DNA of 32,000 nucleotides from Propionibacteriaceae bacterium (GCA_031256725.1 JAIRQE010000019.1:120001-152000); one strand, 5' to 3'; shown: positions 2,854 through 18,563, numbered from the stretch's first letter. Made by a program: numbers and translations. Notes: a model not told the origin generated them from the letters alone.

Positions 2854-2885
2854 TAGGTTCTTTGTTCGAACCTAAGACATGATAA

Positions 2886-2922
2886 ACGCCCGAGGATCTC
2901 CTCAGGCGTTTTTTCTGTTTTT
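2886..2922 (+). terminator. rho-independent terminator after tRNA-Ala
   Basis: The stem ACGCCCGAGGA / TCCTCAGGCGT has one C/A mismatch. It is followed by TTTTTTCTGTTTTT. Confidence 0.75.
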
Positions 2923-3028
2923 GGCTAGGGGTAATACAGACTGTTGAAGTGCGAGCTAGGAAGTTGGCATAGACGAGGTCACCATTTCGAGGTGGTGAGC
3001 TTTGGTGTTTTTTCTCGCTATTGGCAGC

Positions 3029-3358
3029 GAAGATGTCACGAGGCTCTTGCGTACTTTTGGCGGTCTGTATGATGCAGGATGCTTCGTCGTAGATAGGTTG
3101 TACGTCTTCTGTGTGAACAGTTTCTTCAATCTTGATGGCAGTGGTGTCATCGTTGATGAGGATTTGTTCGTGCCAGGTTTGGTTGTAGGCGCGGCGTACA
3201 GTTGAGTTGGCCGTTAGATACCCGGATGCGCTTTGGCTGAGTAGAGTGAGGGCTTTGTCGATGAGTTCGCGACTGTCGTGATCCCCGGCAGTGAGCGTAG
3301 ATAATCTGGCTCGTGCGGATGCTAGATTGGCGGCCAGTTCTTCTTGTTTTCGGCTGGC
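3029..3358 (-). pseudogene. 5'-truncated large serine recombinase remnant (C-terminal region only)
   Basis: This Met-less frame, absent from the ORF track, was translated by hand. It reads ASRKQEELAANLASARARLSTLTAGDHDSRELIDKALTLLSQSASGYLTANSTVRRAYNQTWHEQILINDDTTAIKIEE. That is a coiled-coil stretch followed by the RRxxNQxxxExIxIxDD motif I associate with the C-terminal part of actinobacterial large serine recombinases. The frame is closed by TGA at 3359-3361, and no catalytic domain lies upstream. The lower boundary is approximate. Confidence 0.5.
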
Positions 3359-3493
3359 TCACCCCCACCTAATTTGAGAGGAGCCCGTTCGACGGGTGCT
3401 CTAGTCTTTGCGCCAGACAATGCAAATGAGAAGCGGGGCAGGCGGGCGATCATGGGCACAAATGACGGCGACTGGGAGTCGCGTGAAGCAAAG

Positions 3494-3533
3494 GTGCCCA
3501 AAGGCGCAAACTGCGCCGTCTCCCAAAGGGCAC
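3494..3533 (-). terminator. candidate two-tier hairpin terminator downstream of the NACHT gene
   Basis: On the minus strand the sequence reads GTGCCC-tttgggagac-GGCGCA-gtt-TGCGCC-ttt-GGGCAC, followed by CTTTGCTTC. It lies about 65 nt after the stop at 3599. The U-tract is weak. Confidence 0.3.
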
Positions 3534-3598
3534 GCCGAGCGTCATCGCCGATCAACTCATTACCGAGCGGCCCCGCGAGCTTGGCGAAAACCCACCAA

Positions 3599-6500
3599 CT
3601 ACCCCGGGGCCAAATCGAACCGACTCGGGTCAACCTCAAGGTCGATGATGGCAAGACCGGCAGCAACAAGAACCCCGTGATCACCGAAAGCAAGCCCACC
3701 AACTGTGTCCAGACACCACACCGTAATACCTGCTTGTTCCCCATTCTTGTACCAAAGTCGTACGGCTCCATCGTCGCTGCTGGAGGCAACCACATCACGA
3801 TCACCCAGGCGCCCTAACGCCACCGCAGTCACATGACCAGTGTGGCCTGTCAAAGGCTGACCGACAGGGTTTCCGCTTTCATCCCAAATCCGTACCGTCG
3901 CATCGCGACTGCCGGAGACGATCACCTCACTGGCACCCAAGCGCCCTAGGGCCACGGTGTTTACCATGCTCGTGTGCCCAGTCATCGGTTGGCCGATAGG
4001 GTGTCCGGTTTCATCCCAAATCCGTACCGTCTTGTCACCGCTCCCGGAGACGATTACGCCGCGAGCACTCAGGTGACCCACTGCCAACGCCCTCACGCCA
4101 CCGGTGTGGCCTATCAAGGGCGCACCCAGAGGCTGCCCGTCTCTGTCCCATAACCGTATCGTCTTGTCGTTGCTGCCTGAGACGATTACGTAGCGGTTGG
4201 CCAAACGACCAAATGCCATTGCCCTCACAAAACTGGTGTGACCGGTTGCTGCGCTACCCGTTGACCGACTTGTTTCATCCCAAATCCGTACCGTCTTGTC
4301 GTTGCTGCCGGAGATGATCACATCGCGGTCACCAATATGGCCCACCGCCACCGCCCTCACACAGCTCGTGTGACCAGTCAATGGCTCACCGACCGGGTGC
4401 CCGGTTTCGTCCCACAACCGCAAGGTTCCATCGTTGTCGCCGGACACGATCACATCACGCCTGCCCAAACGGCCCAACGCCACGGCAGCCACCTTACCAG
4501 TGTGGCTTGTCAACGGTTCACCAAGAGGCCGACCATCTCTTTCCCATACCCGTACCGTCTTGTCGTTGTTGCCCGAGACGATCACATCACGGTCGCCCAG
4601 GCGGCCCAACGCTACACTGCTCACCCCGCCAGTAAGGCTGGAGACGAGTTCACTGATAGGTTGTCCGGCTGTACTCCAAGTTCGTACCATCCCATCGCCG
4701 CTGCCGGAGACGATCACATCACGATCACCCAAGCTGCCCAACGCGACCGCATTGACTACGCTGATGACATCACTAGAGTCGACCCACAGGCTCACTCCGA
4801 CCCCGACATGCGCCCAATCGGCGTCACGCGATAGGGGTTCACCGACAGGGTCGCCGCCTTCGTCCCAGAGTCGCACTTTCTCGTCGCCTCCCCCAGATGC
4901 AATCACATCACGATCACCCAGATGGCCCACCGCTACCGCGTTCACCCTTCCATCATGGGCTGCCACCATCTCAGTGACAGAGTGACCGTACTCATCCCAC
5001 ACTCGAATCGTCCCACGGGCATCACCGGACACAATTACGTCGCGGTTGACCAACTGGCCGATCGCCACTGAGCACACCGCACCCCGGTGTCCCCTCAGCG
5101 ACTGCTGAGGTAGACCTATGCCGTGAGCCCATGCGACACGGAAAAAGGCACCCGACCGAGCGTGAAACTCGGCGGCTAGGTCAGACAACCCCAGATGCAC
5201 TGCAGCTAAGGACAAGACGGCTGCTCGCTCCTTGGAGACATGCCCTGCCAGTTGTGAGGCCACCTGCAGAATGACCTTGGCGACCGGCGGTTGTTGCTGG
5301 AATGGCATCGACAAGACGGCCGAAACCAACCGATCAGCATCGGCGTGAATGATGAAGTCCAGATCGGTCAGGAGCGCCGACAACTGCCCAGCATCCAACG
5401 CGTACTCCGCGGCGTGAACACGAATGTGATCATCGACGCTCGCCCAGCTACTAGGCGAGCGCGTGGCCTTCAGCACCACCTCAAGAATAGCGGCTCTGGC
5501 ACCTTGAGCAGGCTCGCTCACGAGCAACTGATCGATCAGCGCCTGGTGGAAAAGCCGTGTCACCAAGCCGTCTTGATTGGTGCCAGTTTGCAGCAGAAAG
5601 TCCGCTATCGGGGTGGCCCTAAGCTCGTCAAGGTCAGATCTAGTAAACATCCTTCCGCTGATCGCCTCGGCAAACTGCAACCACATCGCGTCACTAATAC
5701 CATCACCTTTGGCGTACGCCAGCGCGCGCAATAGGATCGTTTTATTATGCCGAAGTGGTCCACCCAAGGTGTCGAGATACTTGTCAAGCGCCTCACTAAC
5801 GGTGCTGGGAATCGCATTCCTGGCTGCGGGGTCGTACGGATCGAGGGGCGTTTCCCTCTCCATCAACGACGCGGCAGCAAGCACCGCAACTAGAAAGTTG
5901 TTACCTGCTCTTTGTGCAATAATCCGAGCAATGTGGCCCGTTTGCGTGTCATGGCACCGGTAATACTCCCAGGCAGCATGGGCGGGACGCGGCTCCGAAA
6001 TGCCCTTCTGGATAAGAATCGTTGTAGCGAGTCTTTCTAGCGCTTGAGGATCCCGGTACGGATCGCAGTCCAGGTCTACCAGGTTGGAGGCCTCAGAGGA
6101 CCTTGCGCCAAGTCGGTATACCAGCCCGTCTTGGGCGAAAGGATCAGTATTCAAGGGGCGGGTTGCTACAACCACGCGCACATTTGGTATTCGGCTAAGT
6201 CCGTTTAGCGTGTTCGCATACTCGTGAAGATCGGCAAACATCTCGGAGTAGCCAAGGCGGTCTGTCTGAACCAAAGCTTCATCGAGTGCATCCATCAGCA
6301 CCAGCAGTCGTTCGGAAAGGCGGCCATACAACGCCGAAATGAGCTCGCTCCCGTTGGTCGTCTCCGGTACGCCAACGAAATGCGCCAATGCCCTACAAAA
6401 CGTCGCATGAGGTGCTTGGCGCGCATGAAACACCAGGCCAGCGCCGGGATGGCTCAACTCCGCATCTAGCGCTGCCCGACTAAGGACAGCCGACTTCCCC

Positions 6501-7318
6501 GCTCCAGGTTGGCCGATGATGACCAATACTCTGCCCGGGTCTTGTGTCGCATCAAGCCAGTCGTCAATCTTCCTCAACGCCTGTTCTCGGCCCTGGAAAA
6601 ACTGACCGGCAATTACACTGCCGGGTCGGCCGTTGCCCCGGGTTTCGACGTGTGAGCGGGCGTACAAGCCTGCATAACACCACGGAATCGGCAGCCCTGG
6701 GATGCGGCGTACCGGCAGATAGCGATCAAAGACACCGTCAGTTGAGCCTTCCTGCAACACTCCCACCAGACAATGAGTTTCTTCATCGATGATCGCGCCG
6801 CCCGACTGTCCAAGCAATGAACCCTTCGGCTCTGTCCACTTCAGTTGAACCAACCCAGAAGCCGTTGGGCCACTCACGTCAAAAGACCGCCACACACCCT
6901 CCTCCGTACCATCCGCAAGCGGAAAACCAAACAGGGCCACCTGCCTGGGGAGGCCACGGTTCGGGTCTATCGGTACCGGCGTTGGTGAAGGCACCGGTAT
7001 GGGGCGGAGAGATAGGAGTGCGACATCAGCGTCTTCGAGGAATGTGACATCATTATCAAGATCAATTAGCACATCTGGTTTGTCGTGGAACCGCAGCCGA
7101 AACGGCTGGGTGGGAGTCTCCCCCTGGTCTACTCTTTTCGTGATAACGTGGGCGCAGGTCAGTGCAGTGCCGACCGTGGCAAGCACCGCCGTGCCAATTG
7201 GCGAATCATCATCGTAAACGATGGCGCAGCCGGAGACCACGACATCTCTGATGTTTCCGTCTACAGCGCTCATCGTTGTATCGTTTACGACTTGTCGTCC
7301 GAAACGGTCTGTTTCCAT
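3599..7318 (-). CDS. trypsin-like serine protease / NACHT (STAND) NTPase / WD40-repeat protein
   Basis: 1239-aa ORF. The protease triad contexts are TCAHV (His57), DADVALL (Asp98) and GQSGGAI (Ser172). Walker A is GQPGAGKS (res 269-276, nt 6491-6514). Walker B is LLVLMDALDEA, the NACHT-type D-x-x-D-E form. A helical region of about 390 aa follows, then 10-11 WD40 repeats (res 743-1239; VIVSGSxDKTVRIWD...GHTxxVxAVA). An alternative start at Met16 (ATG 7273) would remove the 34-nt overlap with the upstream gene. Confidence 0.9.
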   Translation of the reverse strand: METDRFGRQVVNDTTMSAVDGNIRDVVVSGCAIVYDDDSPIGTAVLATVGTALTCAHVITKRVDQGETPTQPFRLRFHDKPDVLIDLDNDVTFLEDADVALLSLRPIPVPSPTPVPIDPNRGLPRQVALFGFPLADGTEEGVWRSFDVSGPTASGLVQLKWTEPKGSLLGQSGGAIIDEETHCLVGVLQEGSTDGVFDRYLPVRRIPGLPIPWCYAGLYARSHVETRGNGRPGSVIAGQFFQGREQALRKIDDWLDATQDPGRVLVIIGQPGAGKSAVLSRAALDAELSHPGAGLVFHARQAPHATFCRALAHFVGVPETTNGSELISALYGRLSERLLVLMDALDEALVQTDRLGYSEMFADLHEYANTLNGLSRIPNVRVVVATRPLNTDPFAQDGLVYRLGARSSEASNLVDLDCDPYRDPQALERLATTILIQKGISEPRPAHAAWEYYRCHDTQTGHIARIIAQRAGNNFLVAVLAAASLMERETPLDPYDPAARNAIPSTVSEALDKYLDTLGGPLRHNKTILLRALAYAKGDGISDAMWLQFAEAISGRMFTRSDLDELRATPIADFLLQTGTNQDGLVTRLFHQALIDQLLVSEPAQGARAAILEVVLKATRSPSSWASVDDHIRVHAAEYALDAGQLSALLTDLDFIIHADADRLVSAVLSMPFQQQPPVAKVILQVASQLAGHVSKERAAVLSLAAVHLGLSDLAAEFHARSGAFFRVAWAHGIGLPQQSLRGHRGAVCSVAIGQLVNRDVIVSGDARGTIRVWDEYGHSVTEMVAAHDGRVNAVAVGHLGDRDVIASGGGDEKVRLWDEGGDPVGEPLSRDADWAHVGVGVSLWVDSSDVISVVNAVALGSLGDRDVIVSGSGDGMVRTWSTAGQPISELVSSLTGGVSSVALGRLGDRDVIVSGNNDKTVRVWERDGRPLGEPLTSHTGKVAAVALGRLGRRDVIVSGDNDGTLRLWDETGHPVGEPLTGHTSCVRAVAVGHIGDRDVIISGSNDKTVRIWDETSRSTGSAATGHTSFVRAMAFGRLANRYVIVSGSNDKTIRLWDRDGQPLGAPLIGHTGGVRALAVGHLSARGVIVSGSGDKTVRIWDETGHPIGQPMTGHTSMVNTVALGRLGASEVIVSGSRDATVRIWDESGNPVGQPLTGHTGHVTAVALGRLGDRDVVASSSDDGAVRLWYKNGEQAGITVWCLDTVGGLAFGDHGVLVAAGLAIIDLEVDPSRFDLAPG
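3602..5092 (-). repeat. intragenic tandem array of WD40-coding units, 132-bp period
   Basis: The landmark string (g/a)atcacatcac / attacg recurs at 3791, 3923, 4055, 4187, 4319, 4451, 4583 and 4715. These are eight units at exactly 132 bp. It recurs again at 4904 (+189, a 19-aa insertion) and about 5045. Confidence 0.9.
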
Positions 7319-7608
7319 GTCACCGTGATCTTGACGGAGCCCTCAAGGCTTGACTTGGCGATGAACCAGCCCGCTTCGCCCGACAATTTCACGCCTAGTT
7401 CCAGACTGATCTCATCTGGGGCCAAGCGCTGCCTCAATGACTCACACAACAATGCGGTGCTGCTCGCCAGATTGTCCAAATGAGTCAGCTTTGGGTCAAC
7501 CGATTCTGTCCTGTCTCTGCCGCCGCGCTGTTGAATGAACCCATCATCCGCGTTCTCAAACAACACGGTGCTGCCATCATCCATGGTGACACTCAGATAT
7601 CTCGCCAT
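7285..7608 (-). CDS. Trypco2-type (trypsin-co-occurring domain 2 / CU044_2847-family-like) small protein
   Basis: 107-aa ORF with a strong RBS GAGGAGGA 6 nt before the ATG. The N-terminal strand (YLSVTMDDGSTVLFE) and the C-terminal ISLELGVKLSGEAGWFIAKSSLEGSVKITVTWK match my remembered pattern for this family. It overlaps or abuts the protease-NACHT gene on the same strand. Confidence 0.7.
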   Translation of the reverse strand: MARYLSVTMDDGSTVLFENADDGFIQQRGGRDRTESVDPKLTHLDNLASSTALLCESLRQRLAPDEISLELGVKLSGEAGWFIAKSSLEGSVKITVTWKQTVSDDKS

Positions 7609-7792
7609 CGAAGTCCTCCTCGTGGTTGCCCTGGCTACGTATCATCCTATATCAGGTGCCAGACAGTAGCCCTTCAGTCTCACCAACCCCCAGGGAACAA
7701 CGGTTACGCATGCTCCTTGTCGGCGGAACCTTTATCCACCCCATGATCAACTCCCCGACCCAAAAGGAGAAGTCGCAAAGGTGGCGAGGCGT

Positions 7793-8065
7793 CTACATGT
7801 TCTCTCCGACGTGGATGAGGAAGTTCATCCAGGCGACACCAGCACCGGAGAGCGCGGCTGCGCCGAGGGCGACGAGGACGCCGATCTTGCCTTTCTGGGT
7901 GGCTTGGTAGAAGCCGTTGGCTTCGCCGTACGCCCACAGGATCGCCGCCGCGATCAGCGACGCGACCGAGGCGATCAAGACGATGGTCAGCAGCGCGCCA
8001 ACGACTGACTCGATGGTGGTGCCGTTGACAGCGGAGAAGTCGGGGGTTACGTCGAGCGGGATCAT
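7793..8065 (-). CDS. small two-TM membrane protein, DUF6112 / VirB2-TrbC-like (actinobacterial conjugation module)
   Basis: 90 aa starting at ATG 8065, preceded by AAGGAGG. The start overlaps the upstream stop as ATGA. The sequence has two hydrophobic helices, and GKIGVLVALGAAALSGAGVAWMNF resembles ICE pilin-like DUF6112 proteins. Confidence 0.6.
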   Translation of the reverse strand: MIPLDVTPDFSAVNGTTIESVVGALLTIVLIASVASLIAAAILWAYGEANGFYQATQKGKIGVLVALGAAALSGAGVAWMNFLIHVGENM

Positions 8066-8607
8066 GCGTTGCCTCCTTGGACATAGCAGCCTTGTGGGCT
8101 GGTGGTTGCGCCGTCGAGGCCGACGGCTCCGTGGTCGGCGAGCCACCTGTTGGAGTCGATGACTTGGCGGTAGTCGTTGTTTGGTCTGATATCGAAGTGC
8201 AGGTGCGGGCCGGTCGAGTTGCCGTTGCTGCCAACGTCGGCGATGTGTTGCCCGGCGACAACGTGGTCCCCAGCTTGGACGTAGAGGTGGTCGTCCCACA
8301 TGTGCCCGTACAAGCTGGTGTAAGCGCCGCCGACAGCGTGGTTGATGAGGATGGCGTTGGCGACGGGTTCCCAGGTGGCGTACCGCTCGGGGTAGGCGGA
8401 CACTTCGACGGCTTGCACAGCGGTACCTTTTGACAGCGACTGCCAGTTGGGGATGTCGAACAGGCCACGCGGGGACGGGTAGCTGGGGCCAGTCGATCCG
8501 CCGAGGAACGCCCGGACTTGGTAGGCGGGGTCCATGAGATCTTTGACGCTGCCCCACCCGGATTGGTGGCGCACCCGTACTACCCGATCTATCCCAGCGA
8601 CACGCAT
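8062..8607 (-). CDS. M23-family peptidase fragment fused to the tail of a lysozyme-like domain (probably degenerate)
   Basis: The ORF contains the C-terminal M23 block YGHM....VQAGDHVVAGQHIADVGSNGNSTGPHLHFDIR. Its N-terminal part (HQSGWGSVKDLMDPAYQ...AVQAVEVSAYPERYATWEP) resembles the end of the transglycosylase-like domain of ICE cell-wall hydrolases. There is no signal peptide, the HxxxD zinc motif is missing, and the frame is closed upstream at about 8686. Confidence 0.6.
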   Translation of the reverse strand: MRVAGIDRVVRVRHQSGWGSVKDLMDPAYQVRAFLGGSTGPSYPSPRGLFDIPNWQSLSKGTAVQAVEVSAYPERYATWEPVANAILINHAVGGAYTSLYGHMWDDHLYVQAGDHVVAGQHIADVGSNGNSTGPHLHFDIRPNNDYRQVIDSNRWLADHGAVGLDGATTSPQGCYVQGGNA

Positions 8608-9025
8608 TCGCCCGTTGCTGACCTCAACCTTGGGTCGATGCGTAGTGGTAGTACTCGTCTTATTTCCAGACCGAGCCGTCGGTTAGCTCGACGATGGTCT
8701 CGCCCGACTATCCGTTCCACGAACCGTTTATCTAAAGCATCTCTGCCTCCTTCCTCTTGATGTCGCTTTGCAGTCGACTGGCGCTGACCGACGTTCACGA
8801 CAGTACGGGTGGCCACCGACATTCCTGACCGGGACGGGGAGCGGGTGGTGCACTTACCAGGCATGAACGAACGGCTCGCGCGCATTGAGAAGGACATCGC
8901 CAAAGCGCTCAACAACGGTGACCTGGCGCGGGTCCGCAGACTGGCAAAGCAATGGAGCCGCCTGTGGCTGCTGAACCGGGTGAAGCAGCATGGCTGCAAT
9001 CACCGCCGACCAAGTACGCTAACTA

Positions 9026-9361
9026 TTGACCGGCACCCACGAGTTCCTCACCAGCGCCGAAGCCGCCACCAAAGCCCGAGACGCCCTCGGCATCCTGTTC
9101 ATCGACGTGGCGCGAAAATCCAAGATCGGCCTACGCGACCTGTCAGCCGTTAGTGGCCTGCATCGCTCCACCGTCCGTGCGATGATCCAACGCGCTATCG
9201 GCCCCGGCCTCCCCGACGGCTTTGAGCAACCTGAGCTTCCGGTCTACGTTGACCTGGCGGTCGGACACGCTGTTCACGCGGAGACAACAACTGCCGACCA
9301 CCTTCAGATCGTCTCGCCGTCCCGTGCCGCCACGAACCACAGCCCGGCGGTGAACCTCTAG
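9026..9361 (+). CDS. hypothetical HTH-like protein
   Basis: 111-aa ORF with a TTG start and high third-position GC, like the island. It has a possible HTH at IGLRDLSAVSGLHRSTVRAMIQ. I recognise no family. Confidence 0.4.
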   Translation: MTGTHEFLTSAEAATKARDALGILFIDVARKSKIGLRDLSAVSGLHRSTVRAMIQRAIGPGLPDGFEQPELPVYVDLAVGHAVHAETTTADHLQIVSPSRAATNHSPAVNL

Positions 9362-9678
9362 CCCCTGTGCATGGACCGACGGACAGTGGCCGGATCGACA
9401 CCGAAGCGTTCGCCAAGACGGTTGTAGCTCCAACCCTCGGCGCGCAGTCGGGCGACCTCATCGCGTTGCGACTCGTTCAATACGAGCCTCCGCATCGTCA
9501 CGTCGTGCCGCTCCAAGATTCGACTCACCGTGGTCCGGTGGATGCTGAACTCGGCACCCAGTTCGTAGACTGTCTTGCCGTTCTTGTACTCCTCGACGAG
9601 CCGGTCAACCTCGTCCTGGCTGAGTTGCCGTACCTTCCGACGAACGGGCTTCGGGGCCATACTGCGCTTGACAAGCAT
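9358..9678 (-). CDS. tandem helix-turn-helix DNA-binding protein (resolvase/sigma-70 region 4-like HTH x2)
   Basis: This is the C-terminal 106 aa of the 253-aa ORF. It has two HTH units, LSQDEVDRLVEEYKNGKTVYELGAEFSIHRTTVSRIL and ESQRDEVARLRAEGWSYNRLGERFGVDPATVRRSM. The start is uncertain (Met at 9678 or 9660, with no clear RBS). Confidence 0.55.
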   Translation of the reverse strand: MLVKRSMAPKPVRRKVRQLSQDEVDRLVEEYKNGKTVYELGAEFSIHRTTVSRILERHDVTMRRLVLNESQRDEVARLRAEGWSYNRLGERFGVDPATVRRSMHRG

Positions 9679-9780
9679 TTTCGGTAACTTAGGGGCGGTT
9701 CGAGTAGCGTCCAGGAAGGCCCACCAAAGTTCGCTTATCCGAACACCTGGCCTTGAAATGATTTCACCGTCGAGTGCAAG

Positions 9781-10071
9781 ATGACCCAAGCCCAAGTGCA
9801 ACGCAAGCAGAAGCGCACCGAGCAGGAAGTCACCTCGAAGGTCGATTGGGCAAAAACCGAACACGGCATCACGGTGAGTCATCTCCGCGACGAGTTGGCC
9901 GCCGCTCCGACCGAGGCCGACAAGGTGATGGACAGAATCGATACTTTGAAACACTTCATTGAAGAAACCTTTCCCCTCTTGGCTTCTCAGGTTGAGTCTC
10001 TTCCACGTGAACCAAAGAAGGACTGGGATGAACTCAATACCATCTTTCAAAGGATACTGAGTACCATGTGA
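9781..10071 (+). CDS. hypothetical protein (helical)
   Basis: 96-aa ATG ORF that reads more protein-like than the antisense extension of the 9358-10119 ORF. The RBS is weak and I recognise no family. Confidence 0.3.
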   Translation: MTQAQVQRKQKRTEQEVTSKVDWAKTEHGITVSHLRDELAAAPTEADKVMDRIDTLKHFIEETFPLLASQVESLPREPKKDWDELNTIFQRILSTM

Positions 10072-10087
10072 GGTCCAAGGCAGATTT

Positions 10088-11101
10088 TCAGGGGAATCGG
10101 GGCGAACAGGTGGATTCACGTACTACCAAAGAGGTGGCCAACTGTATATTCGTGGTGCCAGGATAGCCTTGACCGTTTGTGATAGACAGAAGGATTCTGG
10201 TCGCCTGGCGGGCCATATCTTCTAGCGGTTGGCGAATCGTTGTCAAGGTTGGAATCATCCAATCACACAGAGGTGAATCATCAAAGCCGACAACTGAAAG
10301 GTCTTGGGGAAGGATGAGTCCCTCTTCGCTCGCCGCACGATAAACACCATTAGCTTGAAGGTCGGACCCGGCAAAGATAGCAGTAGGCGGATCGGGTAAA
10401 GCCAGGAGAGCCTTAGCCGCCTTGTACCCTCCCTCGACTTCGAAATCACCATAATGAACATAGTCCGGGTTGGGTTGGATCCCTGCTCGCGCAAGCCCAG
10501 CTTGGTACCCGTCAAGGCGTTGTTGAGCACAGGTGATGTTTTTGGGGCCTGTGATGATAGCAATACGGCGGTGGCCCAATTCGACCAAATGATCCACCGC
10601 CGTACGCCCCCCCTCGGTATTTGTTGCTCCCACGACGGGTACCCCTGGAGGAACAATCCCAATGGGATCTACGATCACATAAGGAATCCTCAACCTCGCC
10701 AACTCAGAATCAACACCATCAGTGAGCCGGGAGACCACCAGAACTAACCCATCGGAGTGACGTCTAGAGAGCCGGTCGATCCACTGGGGGTTACCCATGT
10801 CGCGCCCATGGGAGACCGAGATCACTAGGCCCACACCCGCTTGAGCAGCCTCAGATTCAGCACCCGCCAACACACAACTCGCCCAAGGGTTACTGATGCC
10901 ACGCAGTACCAAATCAATCAACTTAGCCCGCTTCTGGATCCCTTTTCCTCGGGGACGGTACCCCACCTGTTTCGCTAGATCGAGGATCTGGTCTCGTACT
11001 GGTCCACTGATTCCGGGGCGACCATTGAGTACCTTCGAAACGGTCGCCACTGATGTATCGGCCATCTTAGCGATATCCGCAATGGTGATCCGATCCACCA
11101 T
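10088..11101 (-). CDS. LacI/GalR-family transcriptional regulator
   Basis: 337 aa from ATG 11101, with RBS GGAGGAAAG. The N-terminal HTH is ITIADIAKMADTSVATVSKVLNG, followed by a periplasmic-binding-fold body. The longer 421-aa version overlaps the permease gene and was rejected. Confidence 0.9.
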   Translation of the reverse strand: MVDRITIADIAKMADTSVATVSKVLNGRPGISGPVRDQILDLAKQVGYRPRGKGIQKRAKLIDLVLRGISNPWASCVLAGAESEAAQAGVGLVISVSHGRDMGNPQWIDRLSRRHSDGLVLVVSRLTDGVDSELARLRIPYVIVDPIGIVPPGVPVVGATNTEGGRTAVDHLVELGHRRIAIITGPKNITCAQQRLDGYQAGLARAGIQPNPDYVHYGDFEVEGGYKAAKALLALPDPPTAIFAGSDLQANGVYRAASEEGLILPQDLSVVGFDDSPLCDWMIPTLTTIRQPLEDMARQATRILLSITNGQGYPGTTNIQLATSLVVRESTCSPRFP

Positions 11102-17312: not shown

Positions 17313-18563
17313 ATGAAGTATCTAAAACGCCTTGTTGACGAGGAACTTGTACAGGCTCTTCGCCGATCCGGAGCAGTCCTGATCGAAGGGGCTCGTGGAT
17401 GTGGGAAAACTTCAACTGCGGAACGGGAGGCAGGCAGTGTTTTCCGCCTTGATACCGACCCGTTGACAGACCTCTACATGCAAACAGATCCTTCACAAAT
17501 GCTTGAAGGGGCATCGCCTCGACTGCTTGACGAGTGGCAAATACATCCAAAGATTTGGGATCTCGTGAGGCGGGCCGTTGATGATCGCCAGCGAAAGGGC
17601 CAATTCATCCTGACCGGTTCTGTAACCCCAGAGGATACGATTCGCCGCCATTCCGGCGCTGGACGATTCACAGTGATTCGAATGAGACCCTTGACTTTGT
17701 GGGAAGAAGGAAAAAGCGATGGGGAGGTGAGTCTAGGCCAGCTAAGAAAGACTTGTGAACTCCCAATGATGCAGTCACCACAACCAACTCTTAACGAATG
17801 GACCGAGATTCTCTGCCGAGGGGGATGGCCTGCCATGGTTGAAGCAGATCTGAGCGACTCCATGAGATACGTCAAAGATTATCTTGATCTGATTGTCAGC
17901 GTGGATGTGGGCATGACTTCAAGCAGAAAACGTGATCCTATCAGAATGACGCGACTGATCGCCTCCCTTGCGCGAAACACCTCGTCTGAAGCTTCAATCA
18001 ATACCTTGCGATCTGATGCAGGAGGACCTGATAATCCACTCGCCAGAGATACAACCTCGGATTACCTTGACATATTGGAAAGACTGATGGTGATTGAGCC
18101 ATTACCTGCTTGGCAAACTGCTCTTCGTGGTTCAGCGACCCTCAGACAAGCCCCCAAATGGCATTTCGTTGACCCATCTTTGGCTGTAAGTGCGTTGAGA
18201 GCTAACCCAGCGAAAATCCTGAAAGAGCCGAAGACACTCGGAATGCTATTCGAATCCCTGGCAATACGGGACCTAAGAACATATGCAGAAGCGGATGGTG
18301 GAGTCACTTTTCACGCACGTGACTCGGTTGGGCGGGAGGCAGACCTGATCATTGAATACTCGGATGGGTGGATGGCCTGCGAAATCAAGTTGGGCATGGG
18401 ACAAGCAGACCAAGCAGCTGAGTCCTTGACTCGATTTTGCGCAGCAGTTGATACGCAAACTGTCGGTCCTTGTCTAGGAAAAATCGTCATCGTAGGGAAT
18501 GGACCGGCATATCAAAGAAATGATGGGATTATGGTTGTTCCTTTGGCCAGTCTCCGCCAATAG
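17313..18563 (+). CDS. AAA+ ATPase with C-terminal DUF4143 (PD-(D/E)xK-like) domain
   Basis: 416 aa. Walker A is GARGCGKTS and Walker B-like is LLDEWQ. The C-terminal part has FESLAIRDL...READLIIE...ACEIKLG, a D...E-x-K nuclease-like motif. Confidence 0.8.
   Translation: MKYLKRLVDEELVQALRRSGAVLIEGARGCGKTSTAEREAGSVFRLDTDPLTDLYMQTDPSQMLEGASPRLLDEWQIHPKIWDLVRRAVDDRQRKGQFILTGSVTPEDTIRRHSGAGRFTVIRMRPLTLWEEGKSDGEVSLGQLRKTCELPMMQSPQPTLNEWTEILCRGGWPAMVEADLSDSMRYVKDYLDLIVSVDVGMTSSRKRDPIRMTRLIASLARNTSSEASINTLRSDAGGPDNPLARDTTSDYLDILERLMVIEPLPAWQTALRGSATLRQAPKWHFVDPSLAVSALRANPAKILKEPKTLGMLFESLAIRDLRTYAEADGGVTFHARDSVGREADLIIEYSDGWMACEIKLGMGQADQAAESLTRFCAAVDTQTVGPCLGKIVIVGNGPAYQRNDGIMVVPLASLRQ

Follow-up and report, generated by a model that had tools for sequence, protein, structure and literature searches.

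The stretch of DNA analysed here (the window) covers 32,000 nucleotides of a Propionibacteriaceae metagenome-assembled genome (MAG; GCA_031256725.1 JAIRQE010000019.1:120001-152000). It carries a pair of closely spaced genes that encode a small Trypco1 protein and a large protein in which a trypsin-like protease, a STAND NTPase and a WD40 propeller are joined. The pair has a cousin among the anti-phage systems, one with a mechanism that was elucidated in 2025. We read it, with a probability of about 0.55, as a two-gene, protease-gated membrane-effector immune module of the "protease-STAND plus Pepco" class. It most likely serves as an immune or conflict system of the abortive-infection type, and the cut partner would probably act by damaging the membrane. 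The genes and their motifs are located as follows.

7285..7608, minus strand: Trypco1 gene, 107 aa, an intact open reading frame (ORF); putative protease-activated membrane effector, Pepco-class
7614..7621, minus strand: Shine-Dalgarno-like GAGGAGGA, read from the sequence, 5 nt upstream of the Trypco1 ATG
3599..7318, minus strand: trypsin-STAND-WD40 gene, 1239 aa from Met1, an intact ORF
6758..7195, minus strand: trypsin-like serine protease domain, residues 42-187 (Trypsin_2, 37.1 bits against a cut-off of 27.6)
7148-7150, minus strand: catalytic H57, motif TCAHV
7025-7027, minus strand: catalytic D98, motif DADVALL
6803-6805, minus strand: catalytic S172, motif GQSGGA
5159..6601, minus strand: STAND NTPase module, residues ~240-720 (P-loop nucleotide-binding, helical and winged-helix domains)
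6491-6514, minus strand: Walker A GQPGAGKS (K275), invariant among homologs
6275-6307, minus strand: Walker B LLVLMDALDEA (D343, D346, E347), invariant among homologs
3602..5095, minus strand: WD40 beta-propeller, the putative sensor region, residues 742-1200 plus a degenerate C-terminal blade (WD40, E 3e-54)

Two lines of evidence support the protease-effector reading: trypsin and Trypco co-occur strictly, and the mechanism of a sister module has been published. One genome per species was scanned with the NTPase alignment as query, and 60 more loci of the STAND family were found, almost all in Actinomycetota and many in filamentous or multicellular species. Trypsin domains were called over 66 related loci by our own hidden Markov model scan and a Pfam check of the exceptions; only part of the trypsin-negative loci was re-checked with Pfam. 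Divergent trypsin domains were recognised by Pfam in L030, L032, L041 and L054. All of the 35 loci with a Trypco neighbour encode an N-terminal trypsin-like domain. The neighbour is Trypco1 in 33 and Trypco2 in 2, and it lies upstream on the same strand in 31. Of the 25 loci in which no trypsin domain was detected, none has Trypco next to it (Fisher p 7e-13 for the association, over loci that are phylogenetically non-independent). Six trypsin-bearing loci, one of them at a contig edge, show no detectable Trypco neighbour. The trypsin-negative relatives that were examined carry HTH, TIR/SEFIR or caspase N-termini instead. Trypco thus travels with the protease domain and not with the NTPase/WD40 chassis, as would be expected if the two form a protease-substrate or protease-effector pair. 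An initial annotation of the window, made from its sequence, had proposed that conservation of the pair be examined across genomes. The pair is conserved there too: in all five metagenomic homologs (37-51% identity) the gene immediately upstream is Trypco1, in the same orientation, and the spacing (gap or overlap) is +3 to -22 nt. No Trypco1 was found beside the STAND gene of a TIR-bearing relative.

Individual loci show further arrangements. N-termini are swapped on one NTPase chassis: a caspase Peptidase_C14 is present in L023 (2405-4048), TIR/SEFIR in L018 (3266-4045) and HTH_31 in L015 (3581-4114), and a double effector of TIR and Trypsin_2, with no Trypco, in L039 (2843-3997). Trypco1 is placed downstream of the trypsin-STAND gene and convergent to it in L041 and L054 (7271-7651), and it is divergent in L047. 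Therefore, the pairing can survive the loss of operon structure. Both Trypco types occur in locus L005, since a Trypco2 gene (4845-5180, E 1e-22) is found ~1.6 kb downstream of its Trypco1/trypsin-STAND pair; the WD40 region of this locus is split into several ORFs. In L007 (2-3400), the ORF directly upstream of Trypco1 encodes a second STAND NTPase from this family, so that the sensors are tandem paralogs. The only non-actinobacterial close relative is L022 (3869-6444) from a gammaproteobacterial MAG. Its STAND gene is divided into at least four ORFs, as a pseudogene or through an assembly error.

The sister module was described by Evans et al. (bioRxiv 10.1101/2025.11.14.688446), who renamed Trypco1/Trypco2 "Pepco". 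Their SsPepco, called Trypco2 in the figure legends, forms SDS-resistant 9- to 10-mer beta-barrels, a pre-assembled pore with a hydrophobic exterior and a charged lumen. The trypsin domain of SsAvs4 cuts a 2-kDa C-terminal tail off SsPepco after the conserved Ile97. The processed SsPepco is toxic, and this toxicity depends on its amphipathic helix. Toxicity of SsAvs4/SsPepco requires both the catalytic Ser and Pepco (10.1101/2025.11.14.688446). The view of the initial annotation that a protease with Trypco2 had never been tested experimentally is thus superseded by that work. The two systems have much in common. In Streptomyces subrutilus, a protein of ~110 aa is likewise encoded directly upstream of a trypsin-STAND gene, the hosts are both actinobacterial, and the logic of sensor, protease and small effector is shared. 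SsPepco likewise combines an amphipathic helix with beta-strands that have one hydrophobic and one charged face. On the other hand, the Trypco1 studied here has an extra N-terminal hairpin, its helix is internal rather than N-terminal, and it has neither the conserved Ile nor a long charged, proline-rich unstructured tail. SsAvs4 also bears a portal-binding Avs4 sensor, whereas a WD40 propeller and an NTPase of a different STAND clade are present here.

By analogy with the sister module, the following course of events is proposed. The WD40 propeller would bind an invader-derived ligand, probably a protein. Ligand binding would free the STAND NTPase for ATP binding and oligomerisation, and oligomerisation would gather the trypsin-like N-termini into an active assembly. 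The assembled protease would then cut the co-translated 107-aa Trypco1 at a specific site. In the processed Trypco1, the amphipathic helix and the 14-residue beta-hairpin may build an oligomeric beta-barrel in the cytoplasmic membrane or open one there. This barrel would stop the infected cell, and the role of the pair would be anti-phage. The core of this course, from WD40 sensing through NTPase oligomerisation and protease activation to a Trypco partner, had been put forward in the initial annotation. It gains support from the co-occurrence and from the SsPepco mechanism; the Trypco2 label that went with it is wrong, and the NACHT label is weaker than it was made out to be.

The small protein is a Trypco1 protein. 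The Pfam model Trypco1 (PF19493) matched it with an E value of 1.9e-17 and 64.1 bits against a cut-off of 24.6, over profile positions 2-98 of 98. The NCBIfam model CU044_2847 (NF041216), which had been named for a search at the outset, also matched (E 3.6e-13, 50 bits against a cut-off of 23). Trypco2 (PF19631) gave no match at E<=1, and the original assignment of the small protein to Trypco2 is replaced by Trypco1. In an AlphaFold2 (AF2) monomer, a hairpin (3-19) is followed by a disordered segment (22-34), a helix (39-62) and a long hairpin (66-79/84-97). The family-averaged hydropathy alternates strictly along the strands 66-79 and 84-98 (170 degrees, p<=0.001 against shuffles), and helix 39-62 is amphipathic with a significant moment at 100 degrees (p<0.001). 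The amphipathic helix and the alternating strands of Trypco1 fit the description of SsPepco. W98 is nearly invariant in the family, and A84, P64, E18 and E89 are highly conserved. A likeness of the hairpin to leukocidin/CytK was also considered and rejected; the alignments covered 35-42 residues at E~3, which is too weak to serve as evidence.

Judged from its sequence, the N-terminal domain of the large protein belongs to the trypsin-like serine proteases (PA clan), with His, Asp and Ser of the triad in order, in agreement with the initial annotation. Trypsin_2 scored above its cut-off, and H57, D98 and S172 are invariant in every trypsin-bearing homolog aligned. A protease-domain profile of nine family members matched the V8-family glutamyl endopeptidase 4jcn best (E 8.6e-8) and also SplA, exfoliative toxins and HtrA. 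In the profile alignment, the three catalytic residues superpose on TNKHV, SDLAIL and GNSGSPV of the V8-family enzyme. For the AF2 model's N-terminal domain, Foldseek retrieved DegS (TMt 0.71), SplE and exfoliative toxin A, at TMt 0.5-0.7. When the first 720 aa were compared directly with PDB sequences by phmmer, no significant match appeared.

The assignment of the middle module to the STAND NTPases is solid. The P-loop/STAND models match it weakly, with AAA_16 highest at 34.2 bits and AAA_22 also matching. NACHT (PF05729) scored 28.9 against a cut-off of 26.7, and nSTAND1 scored 26.7 against a cut-off of 27.1. The AF2 model of residues 1-720 is confident, with a predicted local distance difference test (pLDDT) of 82 and a predicted template modelling score of 0.74, and it shows the STAND and trypsin folds. 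Its best Foldseek match is full-length Apaf-1 (3shf, E 8e-10, 564 columns), followed by NRC4, CED-4 and Sr35; NLRC4 and NLRP chains are absent from the 50 best structural matches. The label NACHT is no more than marginal because the scores lie near the cut-off and the solved folds closest to the module are those of Apaf-1, CED-4 and plant NLRs. Of the "NACHT-type STAND NTPase" first described, the STAND part therefore stands, with invariant motifs and an Apaf-1-like fold, and the NACHT part is marginal.

The propeller was described at first as having 10-11 blades, and this count is confirmed. Pfam recognises nine WD40 stretches. The DNA of the region has a periodicity of 132 nt in 10 copies, and the protein has 10 clear blades of 44 aa and one degenerate C-terminal blade. 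The blades are unusually alike, with a mean identity of 52% in amino acids and 61% in nucleotides. Variation is greatest at columns 6, 8, 36 and 38, on either side of the invariant V7 and G37. This position-restricted variability suggests a diversifying ligand surface like that of fungal NLRs of the NWD/HET-E type, in which the WD40 repeats are highly conserved internally. The fungal proteins likewise have unusually similar tandem WD40 blades that vary at a few positions. However, their blade identity is far above the 52% found here, and they belong to another kingdom and have another N-terminal effector.

The two ORFs lie on the same strand and overlap by 34 nt, as first noted. If Met16 (position 7273) is the start of the large gene, its product has 1224 aa and the genes are separated by an 11-nt gap. 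Met16 is the more likely start, since the N-termini of homologs align near residues 17-21 and residues 1-21 are predicted to be disordered (pLDDT<50 in the AF2 model). Many homologs of the small protein begin their alignment at residue 1 of both sequences, in support of Met1 as its start; the small-protein homolog set contained 376 cluster representatives at E<=1e-3. The strong ribosome-binding site reported before this gene is present, GAGGAGGA at 7621-7614 on the minus strand. Full-length homologs of the large protein are 37-53% identical to it, and codon-position GC is even over the full length of its ORF. In the public annotation of the MAG, the large gene starts at M342, within Walker B. 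Its product is an 898-aa "WD40 repeat domain-containing protein" without protease and P-loop, and the small gene starts at M9 and gives 99 aa. The protease and the P-loop are thus invisible in databases because the public start of the large gene was mis-set.

Several results weigh against the protease-gated effector reading. SsPepco (WP_069919158.1, sequence from the supplement) matches the Trypco2 model (E 5e-18), and homology between Trypco1 and Trypco2, tested in four ways, was never significant (hhalign probability 2-4%, E 0.01-0.02). In the weak and non-significant hhalign alignment, the segments that are matched between the two families are helix, strand and hairpin in a common order, helix lying on helix and hairpin on hairpin. 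By BLASTP, the protease domains of the large protein and of SsAvs4 showed no similarity. Trypco1 was modelled as a monomer with moderate confidence (pLDDT 66), and Foldseek with this monomer gave no significant match (best E 0.26, OsmC-like). A conserved tail Ile was not found in 139 Trypco1 tails. Beyond W98, the tail is 0-36 aa long (median 11), is of low complexity and holds no conserved aliphatic residue; I, L or V is present in only 67 of the 139. A Trypco2-style cut after an Ile of the C-terminal tail was rejected for Trypco1 on these statistics. The activation step of Trypco2 is therefore not simply transferable to Trypco1, as there is no conserved Ile tail. The defence-island signal around the relatives is modest. 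The PADLOC check suggested at the outset was run, and the system was not recognised: PADLOC-DB v2 gave no convincing match, only a weak one of the protease domain to RT-Protease_XI (E 4e-5) and nothing for the small protein. No relatives were found on IMG/VR viral contigs.

That no homology was found between Trypco1 and Trypco2, a proven pore-former, would also fit a different role for the small protein. Trypco1 may regulate the protease as an inhibitor, chaperone, adaptor or decoy, and the activated protease would hit cellular or invader proteins, as promiscuous prokaryotic caspases or Lit do. Adjacency and co-evolution fit such a regulator equally well. The Trypco domains were treated by Kaur et al. 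(PMC7159879) as partners or adaptors of unknown role, and the six trypsin-bearing relatives without detectable Trypco suggest that the protease may have other targets. Nevertheless, we consider a regulator improbable. A 14-residue amphipathic beta-hairpin and a helix that are conserved across the family are hard to explain in a soluble inhibitor, and Trypco1 and Trypco2 occupy the same position in a mutually exclusive manner, one of them being a proven effector. A more far-reaching form of the effector reading is offered tentatively and is rather unlikely. Trypco1 could be a second protease-gated beta-barrel pore-former, either independent of Trypco2 or diverged from it beyond recognition, and differently armed. 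Its N-terminal beta-hairpin would be removed by a cut in the linker (~E18 to G30) instead of a C-terminal trimming, and the diversifying WD40 propeller would recognise an invader class that is new as a STAND trigger. For the protease-effector reading in general, candidate cut sites can only be inferred. One is the disordered linker (residues 20-37), which holds a semi-conserved [DS]-L-[VLF]...[GS]-[GR] island, seen here as F24-I25...G29-G30. The other is E18, a near-invariant residue where the hairpin meets the linker. E18 is proposed since the closest solved relatives of the protease are Glu-specific V8-type enzymes.

The invader itself may also be questioned. The pair might be an actinobacterial programmed-cell-death or self/non-self device, which would answer to endogenous stress, a developmental cue, or incoming conjugative DNA or proteins. 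As Kaur et al. noted for these systems (PMC7159879), most of the family comes from Actinomycetota, and many of these hosts are filamentous or multicellular. Conjugative-element remnants adjoin the window copy, the system goes unrecognised by PADLOC, and its neighbours seldom include known defence genes. However, the related trypsin-STAND modules that were tested respond to phage proteins, swapping of N-terminal effectors (TIR, SEFIR, caspase) is typical of immune STANDs, and the position-restricted WD40 variability suggests a diversifying ligand surface. A non-antiviral role is thus judged unlikely, and an immune role remains our preferred reading. It is far more doubtful still that the window copy is a non-functional relic riding on a decayed mobile element. 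Such a relic would suit a ~7-kb patch of slightly higher GC with conjugation and insertion-sequence remnants beside tRNA-Ala, and a public annotation that holds only the truncated 898-aa product. It would also suit the consensus scan for promoter and terminator, which gave nothing convincing and did no better than shuffles. Against this, neither ORF is interrupted, no catalytic or NTP-binding residue is lost, codon-position GC is even and the Shine-Dalgarno sequence is strong. The short public call is explained by the mis-set start inside Walker B.

With respect to other known systems, the comparative work of Kaur, Burroughs, Iyer and Aravind (eLife 2020, PMC7159879) defined Trypco1 and Trypco2 as mutually exclusive neighbours of trypsin-like peptidases. 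The Trypco-trypsin pair was described there mainly in vWA-MoxR/VMAP ternary systems. Their rule that a trypsin has a Trypco1 or Trypco2 neighbour is reproduced here, with a single-chain STAND-WD40 protein as the chassis instead. Avs2-trypsin becomes active upon tetramerisation (VcAvs2; Evans et al. 2025; Guo et al., bioRxiv 10.64898/2026.08.25.746987). It likewise has a fused trypsin-like domain that is activated by STAND oligomerisation and cuts an adjacent latent effector. In contrast, its effector is a DNase of metallo-beta-lactamase fold that is cut twice after Ile, its sensor is TPR-like and binds terminase, and its hosts are proteobacteria. Bacterial Apaf-1-like STANDs with WD40 sensors and caspase effectors were surveyed in 2026 (bioRxiv 10.64898/2026.01.04.697583). 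These proteins and eukaryotic Apaf-1, the closest solved NTPase fold, likewise have a WD40 propeller; the reported bacterial variants use a caspase-like protease instead of the trypsin-like protease and Trypco1 found here. Trypsin-like peptidases are also employed by the CARD-NLR/LypABC systems.

Protease-gated death effectors look like a dominant logic of prokaryotic immunity, with parallels to caspase/gasdermin and to Apaf-1. In the literature searched, Trypco1 is the uncharacterised half of a very abundant "Pepco" class, no experimental work on Trypco1 or on any trypsin-STAND-WD40 protein was found, and no ligands are known for WD40-sensor STANDs. The locus and its ~35 relatives therefore offer a compact test case for pore formation by Trypco1, for its cut site and for the ligand of an Apaf-1-like bacterial propeller. 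Public annotation hides such systems, as the unannotated protease and P-loop of this locus illustrate.

The pair is situated in a ~7-kb stretch between tRNA-Ala (2778-2853) and a LacI/ABC/GH3 sugar cluster. The GC content of this stretch is 0.57-0.62, against 0.50-0.56 elsewhere. The genes upstream of the pair are as follows.

~7793-8060, minus strand: DUF6112 gene, directly upstream of the pair
8062-8607, minus strand: M23 peptidase gene, directly upstream of the pair beyond DUF6112
9358-10119, minus strand: ORF whose HTH_38/HTH_23 motifs are confined to the C-terminal end; it may be a truncated IS30-like transposase or else a small regulator

On plasmids, homologs of the M23 gene belong to conjugal-transfer modules (e.g. 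pGnpA106, L067), a placement that points to a decayed conjugative element in the window. No integrase, relaxase, coupling protein or type IV secretion system (VirB4) ATPase was found in the window, nor was an att-like direct repeat derived from tRNA-Ala. The "island like an integrative and conjugative element" of the initial annotation is therefore a decayed remnant at best: the DUF6112 gene, the M23 gene and the HTH fragment speak for a remnant, and no complete element is present. The neighbours of homologous pairs are variable and rich in mobile-element genes such as transposases, resolvase and integrase. A single clear case of a known defence neighbour was seen in the 24 loci scanned, the Hachiman HamB helicase of L001 (6301-8490, PADLOC E 8e-191), ~1.8 kb from the closest homologous pair. 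In the window, the tRNA-Ala(GGC) at 2778-2853 is followed by ~750 bp (2854-3598) without a convincing gene, up to the 3' end of the STAND gene. The ORFs at 8589-8999 (minus strand) and 8809-9153 (plus strand) have no family matches. The remainder of the window consists of housekeeping genes, and an AAA_14 plus DUF4143 ATPase gene (17313-18563) stands alone between the GH3 glycosidase gene and dinB.

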